Virus record (IMG/VR): IMGVR_UViG_3300012983_001310
Direction: 5' to 3' (one strand)
DNA: 5,853 nt
DNA from: a virus
Taxonomy: Duplodnaviria; Heunggongvirae; Uroviricota; Caudoviricetes
Position 1 is the first letter of the stretch. Every line of letters starts with the position of its first letter. The notes beneath the pieces were generated by a model that made no database searches, was not told where the DNA came from, and saw nothing but the letters and a program-made list of their open reading frames with translations. The translations under genes were made by a program, and so were the position numbers. This document shows, one piece after another, positions 1,787 to 5,853 of this stretch.

Positions 1787-2206
1787 TCGTGTTTCCGCTT
1801 CGCCGGAGCGCCTTTTCGCGCCATGTGATGAGTTCGGTCAGGCTCATGGGATACAGTTCTGATGGCGGCCAGTGAAATATCACTGCCACATCCGCCATCA
1901 GGTCATCGACCGAGAGATTTTTCGGGAACGTTACTGCACCGAGTTCGGCGACAAAAAACCGACCACCTTACCGGCCAGCGCCACAAGGTCAGGCAGTTCC
2001 AGCGCGGCGACTTCCTGCTCGGTCAGCATCGGTGCCGTCATGCGCGGCAGCACCTTAATCAGTGCATCGACTTCGGAGTTCGCGACCGCAGCCAGACTGA
2101 CACCGCGCAGCGTCCCGGCATTAGGTTTCATCAGCGTGACCTGTTCGATAACCTGCTCACCACGCTTGACCGGATTGTCCAGGGTAATCACATTTTCTTT
2201 GTTCAT
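1779..2206 (-). CDS. E+E': Tail assembly chaperone E+E' (142 aa), made by -1 programmed ribosomal frameshift at 1952-1958
   Basis: After a -1 slip on T_TTT_TTG, I translated the new frame by hand: it stays open for 57 codons (VAELGAVTFPKNLSVDDLMADVAVIFHWPPSELYPMSLTELITWREKALRRSGNTNE) and ends at TAA 1781..1779. 85 + 57 = 142 aa, the size known for P2 E+E'. The E' stop overlaps the T start (ATGAGTAA). Confidence 0.75.
1931..2206 (-). CDS. E: Tail assembly chaperone gpE (91 aa), zero-frame product
   Basis: 91-aa ORF (MNKENVITLDNPVKRGEQVIEQVTLMKPNAGTLRG...GFLSPNSVQ) with ATG at 2206 and TAA at 1931-1933. Size and position between the tube gene and the tape measure gene match P2 gpE. Contains the slippery heptamer near its 3' end. 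Confidence 0.9.
   Translation of the reverse strand: MNKENVITLDNPVKRGEQVIEQVTLMKPNAGTLRGVSLAAVANSEVDALIKVLPRMTAPMLTEQEVAALELPDLVALAGKVVGFLSPNSVQ
1952..1958 (-). other. Slippery heptamer T_TTT_TTG for the -1 frameshift (plus strand reads caaaaaa)
   Basis: Minus strand reads GGT TTT TTG TCG in the E frame, so the X_XXY_YYZ heptamer is T_TTT_TTG, placed 6 codons before the E stop. The chaperone/tape-measure frameshift is a conserved feature of tailed phages and is described for the P2 E/E' pair. Confidence 0.75.
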
Positions 2207-2262: not shown

Positions 2263-2781
2263 TCACAGGCCGATATTGCGGCGGTGTTGCTCCAGCCGGT
2301 CGACGCCGTTCACCTTCTCAATCATGTTGATGGTGTCGATTTCGACCAGCTCCTTACCGTCCATCGTCAGCCGGAAATAGGTGCAGACCACGGAGATTTT
2401 CGACTCGGTGTCTTCTCCCTGTTTGCCCTCGCCGGTGTCGATTTCTTTCTGACGTCCACGCATGACCACCTCGACGGCCACCGTTTCGCCGGTATCGTCG
2501 CGCTGGTAAGAGCCTGCAAAACGAATCGGTACGGAATCCACACCGGTTGCGGCGTAAAGCTCCCAGATAACCGAATCCGGGAAGCCACCGAGCGACCACT
2601 CCATTGACAGCGCATCGTCATCAAGGCCGAGGTCTACCGGTGCGCTGCCGTTCATCCCCGCACCGCGATAGTTTTCGAGCTTACGGGTCAGTTTTGGTAG
2701 CGTGACGGACTTCGCGACGCCCTGATAGCTGTAGCCGTTCAGAAAGACGTTCATTAACTTGAGTTTGCGCGGCATTGCCAT
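2263..2781 (-). CDS. FII: Major tail tube protein gpFII (172 aa)
   Basis: 172-aa ORF (MAMPRKLKLMNVFLNGYSYQGVAKSVTLPKLTRKLENYRGAG...) recognised as P2 gpFII. ATG at 2781 is preceded by GGAG with an 8-nt spacer (minus strand GGAGCCTGACCG-ATG). Lies directly downstream of the sheath gene with a 12-nt gap. Confidence 0.93.
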   Translation of the reverse strand: MAMPRKLKLMNVFLNGYSYQGVAKSVTLPKLTRKLENYRGAGMNGSAPVDLGLDDDALSMEWSLGGFPDSVIWELYAATGVDSVPIRFAGSYQRDDTGETVAVEVVMRGRQKEIDTGEGKQGEDTESKISVVCTYFRLTMDGKELVEIDTINMIEKVNGVDRLEQHRRNIGL

Positions 2782-2793
2782 CGGTCAGGCTCC

Positions 2794-3984
2794 TTAATTG
2801 CTGTTAACCGAGGTGACCAGATTTGCCAGGTATTTATCGGTAATACGCTGGCGCAGGGTCAGGTTTTCAAGAGGAGGCACCGGTGTATAGTCGTAGTCGA
2901 TATACAGTTTTCCGGCCTTGAGGGTTTCCGCATCGTTGGATTCTTCGCTGAACCAGCAGGTCGCATCCACGATATAGCCGTTTGTTTTCAGCTCACGGAA
3001 TTTGGCATTGATGCCGTCAACGATGTCGCGAATCAGCGTTGCGGTGATGGGCTTGTCCACCGCCCACATGTGCGCCTCAGCCATCGTGTCGGCCATCACC
3101 TGCGCGGTGCGGGTGTAGTTTTCAAAGAGGAACAGCGGGTCATCAGAGCAGGTACGGTTACCCCAGAATCGGAAACCGTCGCGGCGAATCAGCGTAGTGA
3201 CGCCTGACTTGTTAAGCAGGTCAGCATCGGTGCCGGACTCCTGCAAATCCCAGAATACAGATGCGCTGATGCCGGTAACACCGTTTACCCCGACGTTGGA
3301 CAGCGTTTTATGCCAGCCCTGCTCCTGGTCGATTTTAGCGCGCAGACCCAGCGCACGGGCGGTGGCATACGCGGTGGCGGTGGTGCTGCTGACCGTATCC
3401 CATGCGAGGAAATCCGGCCAGATGACCATCAGCTCACGCTGGCTGAAATTCTGACGGTAGGCTTTCACCTCGGAAATGGTTTTACAGCCCCATGCGCTGA
3501 TATACCCGAAAGCGCGCAGCTTCTGACAGACTGATGCCAGTGCAACAGCCACCTCTTTGGTGTCCAGTCCCGGCACGCCGAGAATACGCGGTTTAACACC
3601 GGTTACCGACTCCGCCGCCAGCAGGGCTTTCAGTCCGGTGTACTGACCGTTTTCGTCGGTGGTGCCGATGATATTGGAAACGGTCTGCGCGAGTTTCGTT
3701 TCCTCGTCGTCGCCGGTGCCGTCTTCCACACGCACGACAACGGTGACCGGTTTTGACTGGTCGGCGATAGCCTGCAACGATGCCGCCAGCGTGCCTTTTT
3801 TACCGGCCTTTGCAATTGCGCTCTGCACATTGGTAATCAGCACAGGTTTATTGAGGGGGAAGGTTTCCGCATCCGCATCGCTGGCCGTGCAGACCATGCC
3901 GACAATGGCAGTGGATACGGTGGAAATGACGCGGGTGCCGTCGTTAATCTCCAGCACCTGCACGCCGTGATGATAGTCACTCAT
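2794..3984 (-). CDS. FI: Contractile tail sheath protein gpFI (396 aa)
   Basis: 396-aa ORF (MSDYHHGVQVLEINDGTRVISTVSTAIVGMVCTASDADAETFPLNKPVLITNVQ...) recognised as P2 gpFI; the length matches. ATG at 3984 is preceded by GGAG (minus strand CCACGGAGTTAAACGG-ATG). GC-rich coding sequence. Confidence 0.95.
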   Translation of the reverse strand: MSDYHHGVQVLEINDGTRVISTVSTAIVGMVCTASDADAETFPLNKPVLITNVQSAIAKAGKKGTLAASLQAIADQSKPVTVVVRVEDGTGDDEETKLAQTVSNIIGTTDENGQYTGLKALLAAESVTGVKPRILGVPGLDTKEVAVALASVCQKLRAFGYISAWGCKTISEVKAYRQNFSQRELMVIWPDFLAWDTVSSTTATAYATARALGLRAKIDQEQGWHKTLSNVGVNGVTGISASVFWDLQESGTDADLLNKSGVTTLIRRDGFRFWGNRTCSDDPLFLFENYTRTAQVMADTMAEAHMWAVDKPITATLIRDIVDGINAKFRELKTNGYIVDATCWFSEESNDAETLKAGKLYIDYDYTPVPPLENLTLRQRITDKYLANLVTSVNSN

Positions 3985-4078
3985 CCGTTTAACTCCGTGG
4001 TTAATGGGTGCAACTATTTTCTGTTGTGCAGAGCATGAGACGCTATTTGACCTGGCTGGTCAGTGGATGAAACAACAG

Positions 4079-4107
4079 ATAAAGAAAAGGCGGGCAATTC
4101 GCCCGCC
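4079..4107 (-). terminator. Rho-independent terminator downstream of the cargo ORF, oriented for minus-strand transcripts
   Basis: Minus strand reads GGCGGGC-GAATT-GCCCGCC (perfect 7-bp GC stem, 5-nt loop) followed directly by TTTTCTTTAT. On the plus strand the same hairpin is followed by a poor T-tract, so it is mainly unidirectional. It lies ~175 nt past the cargo stop and ~95 nt before the FI start. Confidence 0.6.
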
Positions 4108-4282
4108 TGTCCTGATTTGTACTCACTCATTTTCCAACTGACTATTTACATAGTCCAAACGCTATCAAATCTGACTGTCTGCTTTGAGCGAGGTGCTGAC
4201 ATCCGCATGAATGTATGGAGCTGCCGCACACTCTAAAAATGATAGAACGTCTATATATTAATTATCCCTAAGTCCAGTTTCA

Positions 4283-4810
4283 TTAATCAATTTTATTACT
4301 TTTACCTGCAACCTTTTTATTATAGTGATAATAAGAAATAGCACTAGCAAAATAGGATTTTGTCATCGATACGAAAAAACCCAACAAATCTGCCATGTTA
4401 TCAATATCAATATTTGGTTTGGTTTTACTGGCTTTAGTAATCTTCATGTAGAAGTCCACAAACTTACTTTTTTCTTTATCCGTAATCTGATAATTCAATT
4501 GATGACTGATTTTATTTCTTATGCTGTTAAAGTCTTTTATTCTTAAATATATTTCATCATAAGGGGGTTTTGCAGGCTCATGTTGTATTAAAGCTATTTT
4601 TTGTGAAAATGTGAGTTTTGCATCACCCCAAGCTAACGAAGGATATCTTAATCCAAGATAATCAGTAATATACTTTTCAAGGCTCAAGTGCGCAGTAAGA
4701 AAGGCACCTATGAAGGCAACGTCAACCCCATCAACACGTTCCCATATGCTTTCATTTTCATCAGTCATACCTGTATACACAGCAGTTGATGCAAGATCTT
4801 TCCAGTCCAT
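4283..4810 (-). CDS. Hypothetical 175-aa cargo protein in an AT-rich island; candidate lysogenic-conversion or anti-phage defence gene; HEPN-like R-x4-H motif is speculative
   Basis: 528-nt ORF in DNA of roughly 25-28% G+C (my hand counts on 60-nt samples), where stop codons are frequent and long ORFs are unlikely by chance. ATG at 4810 is the first possible start (in-frame TAA two codons upstream) and is preceded by AAGGA with a 6-nt spacer. Same strand as the tail genes, flanked by its own terminator. Predicted product is largely helical by eye; R98-N-K-I-S-H103 is encoded at 4502..4519. Confidence 0.8.
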   Translation of the reverse strand: MDWKDLASTAVYTGMTDENESIWERVDGVDVAFIGAFLTAHLSLEKYITDYLGLRYPSLAWGDAKLTFSQKIALIQHEPAKPPYDEIYLRIKDFNSIRNKISHQLNYQITDKEKSKFVDFYMKITKASKTKPNIDIDNMADLLGFFVSMTKSYFASAISYYHYNKKVAGKSNKID

Positions 4811-4845
4811 GCTTTATCCTTTTAAAGGTGAATTTAACGAGTTTA

Positions 4846-4874
4846 ACTTTATCTCAACTCAATACTTATCTCAA
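4846..4874 (-). promoter_or_regulatory. Candidate sigma70 promoter for the cargo ORF: -35 TTGAGA (4874..4869), 17-nt spacer, -10 TAAAGT (4851..4846)
   Basis: Read on the minus strand: TTGAGA is a 5/6 match to TTGACA and TAAAGT a 4/6 match to TATAAT, with 17-nt spacing. Predicted start near 4839 gives a ~30-nt leader to the ATG at 4810. Two copies of TTGAGATAA overlap the -35 and the -10. AT-rich DNA gives many chance matches, so confidence is low. Confidence 0.3.
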
Positions 4875-5199
4875 AATTTATGAGTAGAAATAACATCCAC
4901 AAAAAACTATTAAAGCCCTTTTACCTCTTATTATTGATGAAAATGTACATTTTTATAATGAATGTCGAAGAACCTCCTCAGTGGAACTATCAACTACACA
5001 TTGCAAGACTAGAGTATGTGCAAACCTTTTGACAAGGTTCTGAAATATTCATGGTGGCCTTATTATATCAATTTATCTTCACTTTATACATTAACATAGC
5101 ATGATGTTGATAATGTCCGCTCCTAGCACAGAGCGGACTGTCAGATTAGGCCTTACTCTGTACTATAGCTATGTTAACTAACACAAGAGATCATATCAC

Positions 5200-5727
5200 T
5201 TATTGCGGCATTTCCGGCCATTCAGGATTTGCAGGATCCACACGGCTGACCAGAACACAGTAGCGTTCCCATGCTTCCAGTCGGCTACGCTCCTCATCTG
5301 TTGCCATGTTCAGTCTGACAGCGCGCTCCAGTGGCTGAATAACGCTTTCCGCTTCGGAAAGTAACGCGGCCTTTTGTGATTCTGCCTGTTGTTGCTGTTC
5401 GTCTGCCGTATAAATCCGCTTAATCACGGCACCATCCTTAAACATCCATTTACCTGAGTCATCAGCACGTCGGTTGGCGGTAATATCAGGAACCTCGACA
5501 ACGTTAAAACCTTCAGGGTTAAGCGTTGAAGCATCCCTGGTGATGCCGACAATTATATTATTCTCATCGTAAACAATCTTTATCGTGTCCTCCTGAAAAT
5601 TACTTACTTCCTCATACCAGTTTTTTCCCTCTTCGGACCATAACCAGATAACATCAAAATTTTTTGTCAGTTGATATTGGGCAACAGTTTTTGGATTACC
5701 CGCAGTAATATTTTTTAAATGCTGCAT
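5200..5727 (-). CDS. G: Tail fibre assembly protein gpG (175 aa)
   Basis: From ATG 5727 the product is [40 protein letters not shown]...[30 protein letters not shown], recognised as P2 gpG / Mu U family with the characteristic C-terminal W-x-RY-x-V-L-x-RVD...EWP motif; 175 aa matches P2 gpG. The ORF-track start at 5814 is a TTG with no Shine-Dalgarno. The frame is open upstream to the window edge, so the true start is not fully certain. Confidence 0.85.
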
Positions 5728-5853
5728 AAATTGTAAGCGTACAGCCTGAACCGTCTGGTCAGAATCTGACGAATTAGACAAAGTGGTGTCCACCAAATAA
5801 GTAGTGGGAACCAAAGTGTCAGATATGCAGAAAAATGTGACTCCCGGCAGGCG
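5728..5853 (-). other. H-G junction: either the 3' end of the upstream tail-fibre gene (H-like) or an H-G spacer; frame not resolvable in this window
   Basis: Synteny in P2 (V W J I H G) places tail-fibre gene H immediately upstream of G. Of the three minus frames, the G frame is open to the window edge, a second frame is open to a TAA at 5717..5715 overlapping the G start, and the third stops at TGA 5821..5819. Only 126 nt are available, so the H stop cannot be fixed. Confidence 0.3.

Follow-up and report, generated by a model that had tools for sequence, protein, structure and literature searches.

HEPN domains are common in defence proteins. The closest described system is HepS ('HEPN Solo'), an abortive-infection protein of the Salmonella prophage Gifsy-1 (PDB 9oij/9oik; Sargen et al., Nature 2026, PMC13043305), so that a single-gene HEPN abortive-infection nuclease on a prophage has been in the literature since January 2026. 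In HepS, RNA cleavage depends on both R100 and H105, and protection is lost when H105A is introduced on the chromosome (PMC13043305). The protein is an auto-inhibited tetramer, and as a solo HEPN it restrains itself without an antitoxin; its N- and C-terminal tails (S13/D15 and S202/T203) form a trigger-binding beta-sheet, the trigger is the siphovirus J tail-tip protein, and the anticodon loops of tRNA-Thr/Ile/Ser are cleaved (PMC13043305). Here we compare with HepS a 175-amino-acid (aa) protein encoded in the virus record IMGVR_UViG_3300012983_001310, whose 5,853 nucleotides (nt) are referred to as the window. We consider it very likely that this protein contains a genuine catalytic-type HEPN domain. 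That it is a catalytically competent standalone HEPN RNase, carried as accessory ('moron') cargo in the fun/Z hotspot of a P2-type E. coli prophage and serving as a solo abortive-infection nuclease, is in our judgement the probable reading.

The gene and the relevant parts of its product are located as follows.

4283..4810, minus strand (stop codon included): open reading frame (ORF) of the putative standalone HEPN-domain protein, 175 aa, predicted 20.2 kDa and isoelectric point 7.8
4817..4823, minus strand: ribosome-binding site AAAAGGA, 6 nt upstream of the ATG, seen in the sequence
4736..4783, minus strand: predicted N-terminal beta-hairpin, residues 10-25, before the helical core (DSSP strands, predicted local distance difference test (pLDDT) above 90)
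4676..4690, minus strand: H41-L-S-L-E45, second conserved polar pair, in the first long helix (conservation; hhalign against HepS)
4598..4615, minus strand: conserved segment L66-T-F68-S-Q70-K71, at the start of the short helix 68-75 (conservation; hhalign against HepS)
4502..4528, minus strand: extended motif N95-S-I-R98-N99-K-I-S-H103 (NxxRNxxxH), at the C-terminal end of helix 85-103 (codons verified)

The ORF begins with the ATG at 4810, and the AGGA of its ribosome-binding site lies at 4820..4817. An earlier note on this DNA, made from the letters alone, had picked out an R-x4-H motif, and the minus-strand codons AGA (4519..4517), AAT, AAA, ATC, AGT and CAT (4504..4502) do encode R98-N99-K100-I101-S102-H103. 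As that note had also remarked, the protein has neither a P-loop nor a transmembrane-grade stretch, the maximum Kyte-Doolittle mean over 19 residues being 1.42. Its caution that a six-residue motif can arise by chance was well placed: composition-preserving shuffles (n=20,000) gave R-x4-H in 9.2%, R-x4-6-H in 24.7% and RN-x3-H in 0.5% of sequences. The bare motif is thus no better than chance, and its significance rests on conservation.

A word-indexed search returned 24 clusters of close relatives, all from Enterobacterales and at least 59% identical. R98 and H103 are invariant among them, but so are 54 of the 175 columns, and this set consequently carries little information; the same type of search with a deep profile added only four distant relatives, on short contigs. 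An exhaustive hidden Markov model search of 1.84 billion cluster representatives yielded 368 relatives with an expectation value (E) of 1e-3 or less, 89 of them at 1e-10 or less, nearly all 140-230 aa long. Conservation of the two residues was one check that the earlier note had proposed, and in a 138-sequence alignment R98 was present in 138/138 and H103 in 137/138, with N99 in 137/138 and N95 in 135/138. Two further segments were similarly retained: H41 (136/138), L42 (135/138) and E45 (137/138) in the first long helix, and L66 (124/138), F68 (134/138), Q70 (116/138) and K71 (125/138) ahead of the catalytic helix. Alignment A2 (124 sequences with 20-30% identity to the query) has a single fully invariant column, that of R98. 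By pattern match, 135 of 137 full-length representatives (median 185 aa; two exceed 230 aa) contain RNxxxH and 133 contain NxxRNxxxH. About half of the distant members also have W23 and a 'PP' at positions 9-10, and the family signature can be written G-x2-L-x2-H-L-x2-E ... F-x-Q-K ... N-x2-R-N-x3-H.

Catalytic HEPN families have been defined by R-x4-6-H, a polar residue (N/D/H) after the arginine, a conserved acid in helix 1 and, often, E-x3-[KR] (Anantharaman et al. 2013, PMC3710099). In the 175-aa protein N99 supplies the polar residue, the motif is kept in homologues, and E45 is the candidate for the 'second conserved acidic residue', with T/D/N at position +4 and not the K/R of the canonical E-x3-[KR]. 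The near-universal R98, N99, H103, N95 and E45 imply selection on catalysis.

When the family profile was compared with all PDB sequences, HepS was found at E 3.4e-7, its H105A mutant chain scored 8 bits lower, and Csm6 and Csm6' followed at E 0.013 and 0.017; a shallow profile had already found HepS at E 0.015. The alignments with HepS, Csm6 and Csm6' all centre on the catalytic N-x-x-R-N-K-x-A-H. The HepS sequence was recovered by a degenerate DNA pattern from 10 IMG/VR contigs, with Y20, R100 and H105 at their published positions; the pattern had no match in GTDB genomes, and a HepS fragment had none by tblastn in the phage collection. Aligned by hhalign, A2 and HepS matched with 95.5% probability and E 1.4e-8, pairing E45 with HepS E48, K71 with K76, R98 with R100, H103 with H105 and H41 with N44, and pairwise BLASTP gave 24% identity over 72 residues. 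From these alignments the 175-aa protein appears homologous to HepS but distant, and it is best treated as belonging to a sister family.

The predicted fold agrees with the sequence comparison. From a shallow 21-sequence alignment, AlphaFold gave a model with pLDDT 72.8 (the other four models, 46-55), and Foldseek against the PDB returned weak matches (best E 0.15) with HepS first (probability 0.97, template modeling score 0.44). This model was superseded by that from a deep alignment, with pLDDT 93.3, a predicted template modeling score of 0.84 and all five models at 92 or above. The deep model places a beta-hairpin (10-15, 21-25) before helices 31-55, 61-64, 68-75, 85-103, 111-126 and 139-171, and the catalytic motif lies at the C-terminal end of helix 85-103, the third long helix. 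The all-alpha fold guessed in the earlier note was right as to the mainly helical core but had not foreseen the confidently modelled N-terminal hairpin. In structural comparison the values were 9.3 for MtlR (3brj), 9.1 for YggD (3c8g), 8.5 for MtlR (6kcr) and 8.4 for HepS (9oik), which had the most residues aligned (130) and the highest identity (18%) in the list; then came AF0298 HEPN (8.0), HI0074 (7.5), HEPN toxins (7.3, 7.2 and 6.5), Sacsin HEPN (6.5), Cas13b (6.4), AbiF (6.2), Las1 (6.0) and Csm6 (5.8). The search for a HEPN fold asked for in that note thus returned HEPN proteins, and the modelled chain forms what is predicted to be a HEPN helical bundle. Since the shallow-alignment model gave the identical ranking, and HepS came first in Foldseek, the assignment of the fold is robust. 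Taken together, the predicted fold and the near-universal R/H motif support the earlier suggestion of a possible HEPN-type RNase.

These data bear on two other explanations. One is that the motif arose by chance in an unrelated helical protein and that the resemblance to HEPN proteins is spurious; the motif conservation, the profile matches to HepS and Csm6, the hhalign result and the structural matches effectively refute it, leaving it the faintest of chances. The other is that the HEPN domain is non-catalytic and that the protein regulates by binding RNA or proteins, as does MtlR/YggD, the repressor of the mannitol operon. The likeness to MtlR/YggD (PDB 3brj, 3c8g, 6kcr) is one of fold only: neither family profile retrieved any MtlR/YggD chain, even with E allowed up to 10, and there are no mannitol genes in the window or the sampled contexts described below. 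MtlR keeps Rx4-6H in only about 60% of its members (PMC3710099) and is found in mannitol operons, whereas the 175-aa family keeps RNxxxH in 135/137 representatives, along with N95, N99 and E45, and is mobile cargo. We regard a regulator of this type as very unlikely.

We next turn from the protein to its gene. All the genes of the window lie on the minus strand and make up the tail module of a P2-type (Peduovirus) prophage, with the tape-measure gene leaving the window at its left end.

5200..5814, minus strand: tail-fibre assembly protein gpG, left flank of the slot (Pfam Caudo_TAP, 5.5e-37; annotation of ON470601)
4846..4874, minus strand: candidate sigma-70 promoter TTGAGA-17-TAAAGT, 36 nt upstream of the ATG (consensus scan, weak)
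4200..5111, no strand assigned: swapped low-GC (guanine-cytosine) cassette in the P2 G-FI (fun/Z) slot (blastn against P2, composition profile)
4088..4108, minus strand: intrinsic terminator, 9-bp stem with 7 G-C pairs followed by a T-run (terminator scan; inside the P2-shared segment)
2794..3984, minus strand: tail sheath gpFI, right flank of the slot (Pfam Phage_sheath_1, Phage_sheath_1C, Gp18_domIII_N; annotation of ON470601 and P2)
2263..2781, minus strand: tail tube FII
1931..2206, minus strand: chaperone gpE

The cassette has a GC content of 0.32-0.36, against about 0.55 in its flanks. Homology to P2 (blastn), which includes a block at 2402-4199, stops at 4199 and restarts at 5112, while P2 itself has a different, 299-aa ORF in this slot (the fun/Z position). 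Because the homology breaks at 4199/5112, we conclude that a cassette of about 0.9 kb replaces the 299-aa ORF. The two cargos share the gpG/gpFI insertion slot, its borders and the terminator downstream, which in the window lies between the cargo gene and FI, although the proteins are unrelated in sequence. The fun locus is reported to be a second defence-enriched hotspot of P2, with three validated systems (PMC9519451), and tail-gene hotspots were confirmed by a 2026 survey (PMC13586616).

The cassette contains only one ORF, that of the 175-aa protein (4283..4810), and no second ORF was seen in it, the annotation of all records examined included. The short repeats that it contains, direct and inverted, are AT-rich, occur in two copies and are of doubtful significance. 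We considered whether the protein could be the toxin of a toxin-antitoxin or addiction module that stabilises the prophage or the cassette and whose antitoxin (a small peptide, an RNA acting in antisense or in cis, or a host factor) has escaped recognition. This seems unlikely, given that no record annotates a second ORF in the cassette, that the cassette has no tandem repeats and no Rfam match such as an antitoxin noncoding RNA might give, and that HepS provides the precedent of a solo HEPN protein restrained without an antitoxin. The surroundings of its relatives, sampled at seven loci, point the same way: no neighbouring gene recurs across the seven contexts, and the DNA upstream varies between them; the gene is therefore not accompanied by a cis-encoded partner. 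When copies from different contexts are compared at the nucleotide level, homology is seen only from about 14 nt before the ATG onward, and the DNA further upstream is not conserved. We conclude from this, and from the lack of a recurring neighbour, that the mobile unit is the ORF with its ribosome-binding site.

The contexts themselves are diverse. An 82%-identical copy (IMGVR_UViG_3300031414_000675, 1994-9363) lies between the replication protein GpA and portal genes, in the old/tin slot, beside a gene for a HicB-family antitoxin (6317-6661) and one for a 405-aa FRG-domain protein (6705-7922); the same cassette thus uses both P2 hotspots. A 62%-identical copy (loci L009, 7001-9177, and L031, 5001-7192) is found in a divergent P2-like prophage between a tail-fibre gene and gpU, where its immediate neighbours in a small defence cluster are an AbiGi gene (Pfam, 7.7e-58) and an ORF of 228-233 aa, possibly AbiGii, that has no match in Pfam. 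An 83%-identical copy is chromosomal in Serratia, near traC. Of the more distant members, one is in an integrase/D5-primase/terminase element and one in a Paraburkholderia island that carries a resolvase; another separates uvrB from a Gp49/HTH_37 toxin-antitoxin pair, and a further one lies among housekeeping genes.

Among 5,426 complete E. coli genomes, 1,703 carry the P2 G/FI flanks, and 49-50 of these flank-bearing genomes have the cargo gene, always on the chromosome and always annotated 'hypothetical protein'. The gene is also present in one sequenced phage, vB_EcoM-569R9, and the exact protein is encoded on 641 contigs of public assemblies. An active HEPN RNase might instead serve the phage's own biology, by processing transcripts, acting in lysogeny or induction, or countering a host system. 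The gene is indeed co-oriented with the late tail operons and upstream of a terminator shared with P2, and hotspot genes are not all defensive: about a quarter of P2 hotspot-1 loci have partition systems and some have toxins (PMC9122126). However, its presence in so few of the approximately 1,700 flank-bearing genomes marks it as dispensable for P2, copies occur outside phages (the Serratia chromosome, the housekeeping genes), and its closest characterised relative, HepS, is a defence protein. We think a role in phage biology improbable and continue to favour a solo abortive-infection nuclease.

In two E. coli strains the gene may be altered. In ST2350 (NZ_CP031321.1) the region is annotated as two hypothetical proteins, with an 84-aa fragment appearing in a protein cluster, and in TK3046 (NZ_AP044762.1), where two places in the record were matched, only gene bases 232-528 were matched at the better one. 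Both copies may be disrupted, as might be expected of a gene that imposes a cost in its intact form. The chromosomal Serratia copies (L011/L012, 7775-8867) are followed on the opposite strand by the same pair of ORFs without annotation (238 aa and 108 aa), and a TraC_F_IV gene is about 5 kb away. Beyond the HEPN stop codon, about 100 nt are common to these copies and the window. This suggests a conjugative-element context for the Serratia copies and a cassette border near window position 4182-4199.

The 175-aa gene resembles hepS in being standalone, partnerless and carried by a prophage in an accessory slot outside the core modules, and HepS likewise has no Pfam match above threshold. The differences are also clear. 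HepS resides in a lambdoid siphovirus, between replication and antirepressor genes, whereas the window's gene occupies a tail-gene slot of a P2-type myovirus, and H41, conserved in the 175-aa family, is N44 in HepS. Because the C-terminal tail is absent, the trigger and the geometry of activation probably differ from those of HepS. That the details of the system mirror HepS we consider doubtful; the tetrameric state, the J tail-tip trigger and the tRNA-Thr/Ile/Ser targets may well be different.

Starting from the HEPN fold, the intact and strongly selected motif, the homology to HepS and Csm6, the solo architecture and the residence in a defence hotspot, all established computationally, we propose the following mechanism. 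The protein is predicted to fold as a HEPN helical bundle with NxxR98-N-xxx-H103 at the end of the third long helix. By analogy with HEPN biochemistry and with HepS, it would form a homo-oligomer in which the R/H motifs of two protomers make up a composite, metal-independent RNase site. Latency would be maintained by auto-inhibition within the oligomer, which we propose because there is no antitoxin gene or RNA, and a local promoter in the AT-rich cassette would allow expression in the lysogen. A protein of a superinfecting phage would then bind, possibly through the N-terminal beta-hairpin, and open the active site, as in HepS. The hairpin is a candidate sensor or oligomerisation element, and its role as a sensor is plausible. 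Once active, the enzyme would cut RNA of the cell, with mRNA or the anticodon loops of tRNA as the most plausible targets, leading to translation arrest and an aborted infection. P2 itself would presumably not make the trigger.

The family was also compared with other HEPN systems and with curated libraries. The HEPN catalytic helix of Csm6/CARF-HEPN proteins (e.g. PDB 6tug, 8pcw) is similar in sequence, and among 124 family members PADLOC gave 20 matches to CARF_HEPN models and 13 to Csm6 models. The 175-aa protein, in contrast, is a single domain with no CARF fusion, and no CRISPR genes were found in the window or the sampled contexts. It differs from AbiD/AbiF (Abi_2) in having no Abi_2 Pfam match (1 of 124 relatives did, at E 0.007) and no noncoding RNA partner detectable in the cassette by Rfam or repeats, and from HEPN-MNT toxins in that no MNT nucleotidyltransferase gene neighbours it in the sampled contexts. 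None of the HEPN families of Pfam matched it even at E up to 1. PF18735 (RiboL-PSP-HEPN) was touched by 6 of the 124 relatives (best E 8.8e-4), and the other weak Pfam matches among these were 4 to HEPN_Cthe2314, 2 to Cas_Csm6_HEPN, 2 to HEPN_MAE_28990 and 1 to Abi_2 (best E 1.5e-4 to 7.4e-3). One UniRef entry, of a relative with 83% identity, has nevertheless been auto-named 'RiboL-PSP-HEPN domain-containing protein'. PADLOC (v2.0.0), including PD-T4, PD-lambda and PD-T7 of the same P2 hotspot, contributed 0 families at E up to 10, and PHROGs contributed only phrog_5483, of unknown function.

Several points weigh against a solo abortive-infection nuclease. We infer rather than observe the family's RNase activity, toxicity, phage protection, oligomeric state, trigger and RNA target. 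The best structural matches, MtlR and YggD, belong to a HEPN family with many members thought to be non-catalytic, and no curated model of Pfam, NCBIfam or PADLOC matched the 175-aa protein. Identity to HepS is about 20% over 86 columns only (37-124 against HepS 40-126), and the termini do not align. The protein is also 35 residues shorter and lacks the C-terminal trigger-binding tail (HepS S202/T203): in the model its chain would end 4 residues past the last helix (139-171), with no second tail for a sheet like that of HepS. Given this low identity and the absent tail, the tetramer, the J-protein trigger and the tRNA-Thr/Ile/Ser targets are not transferable from HepS. Ordinary housekeeping genes surround two of the distant members. 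Finally, the promoter prediction is without statistical support, with 5 promoter-like sites in the region against a shuffle expectation of 5.3.

With HepS already described, the 175-aa protein is a well-supported and directly testable candidate rather than a surprise. What is new is that the family is absent from Pfam, NCBIfam and PADLOC, and that it is only distant kin of HepS, with a different terminal architecture, and is carried by P2-type myophages in both of their hotspots. If the proposed role is correct, about 1% of complete E. coli genomes carry, unannotated, a single-protein nuclease against phages that is missed by Pfam, NCBIfam and PADLOC (v2.0.0) and would be the second characterised 'solo HEPN' lineage after HepS, on a different type of phage. 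The comparison with HepS would then show how a small RNase scaffold is rewired for other invaders and for self-avoidance by the prophage. More speculatively, and we would not lean on it, the protein might be the first E. coli representative of a distinct and so far uncatalogued family of solo HEPN sensor-effectors (368 or more clusters at 50% identity, in Proteobacteria and metagenomes) with a sensing surface unlike that of HepS, formed by an N-terminal hairpin with no C-terminal strand and detecting a different class of phage protein. In that event P2-type myophages would exclude competitors with one gene and without triggering it themselves, and 'solo HEPN' immunity would be a broad modular strategy with swappable triggers and not a peculiarity of Gifsy-1. 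The family alignment could become a model that adds several hundred candidate defence genes to databases, and the gene is relevant to the prediction of host range in phage therapy against E. coli with P2-like prophages.

Other observations concern the extent of the family. The profile matched three giant proteins (P0039, P0147 and P0152; 2,278-4,271 aa) over positions 92-128 up to 16 times each (best stretch in P0152, 84-145); these were rejected as spurious, being low-complexity sequences rich in S/T/L/V/N and not HEPN arrays. Among plasmids, tblastn matched only three Sinorhizobium megaplasmids of about 773 kb (NZ_CP104132.1, NZ_CP104137.1 and NZ_CP104128.1), in hypothetical proteins, at 25.7% identity and E 4e-3 over residues 24-122; the family thus reaches alpha-proteobacterial replicons. 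Pfam DUF6548 gave weak matches (E 0.026 to 0.001) to residues 84-127 of the 175-aa protein, which comprise the catalytic helix, and to relatives P0014 and P0027, and DUF6548 may itself be an unrecognised HEPN family.

The remaining observations concern the flanking tail genes. The mechanical ORF for gpG starts with TTG at 5814 and encodes 204 aa, whereas the related phage record ON470601 annotates a 175-aa gpG; the shorter start, an ATG near 5727, is probably the true one. A 45-aa plus-strand ORF (4004-4141), called 'hypothetical protein' in ON470601, runs antisense across the terminator at 4088-4108 in the P2-shared segment and seems to be a spurious annotation. Near the 3' end of the gpE gene, the minus strand carries a TTTTTTG slippery heptamer at 1952-1958, which we take to be the expected P2 E/E+E' -1 programmed frameshift site giving rise to a second tail chaperone. 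In the related phage record, an ORF of its own just downstream of gpE is labelled 'P2 GpE family protein'.
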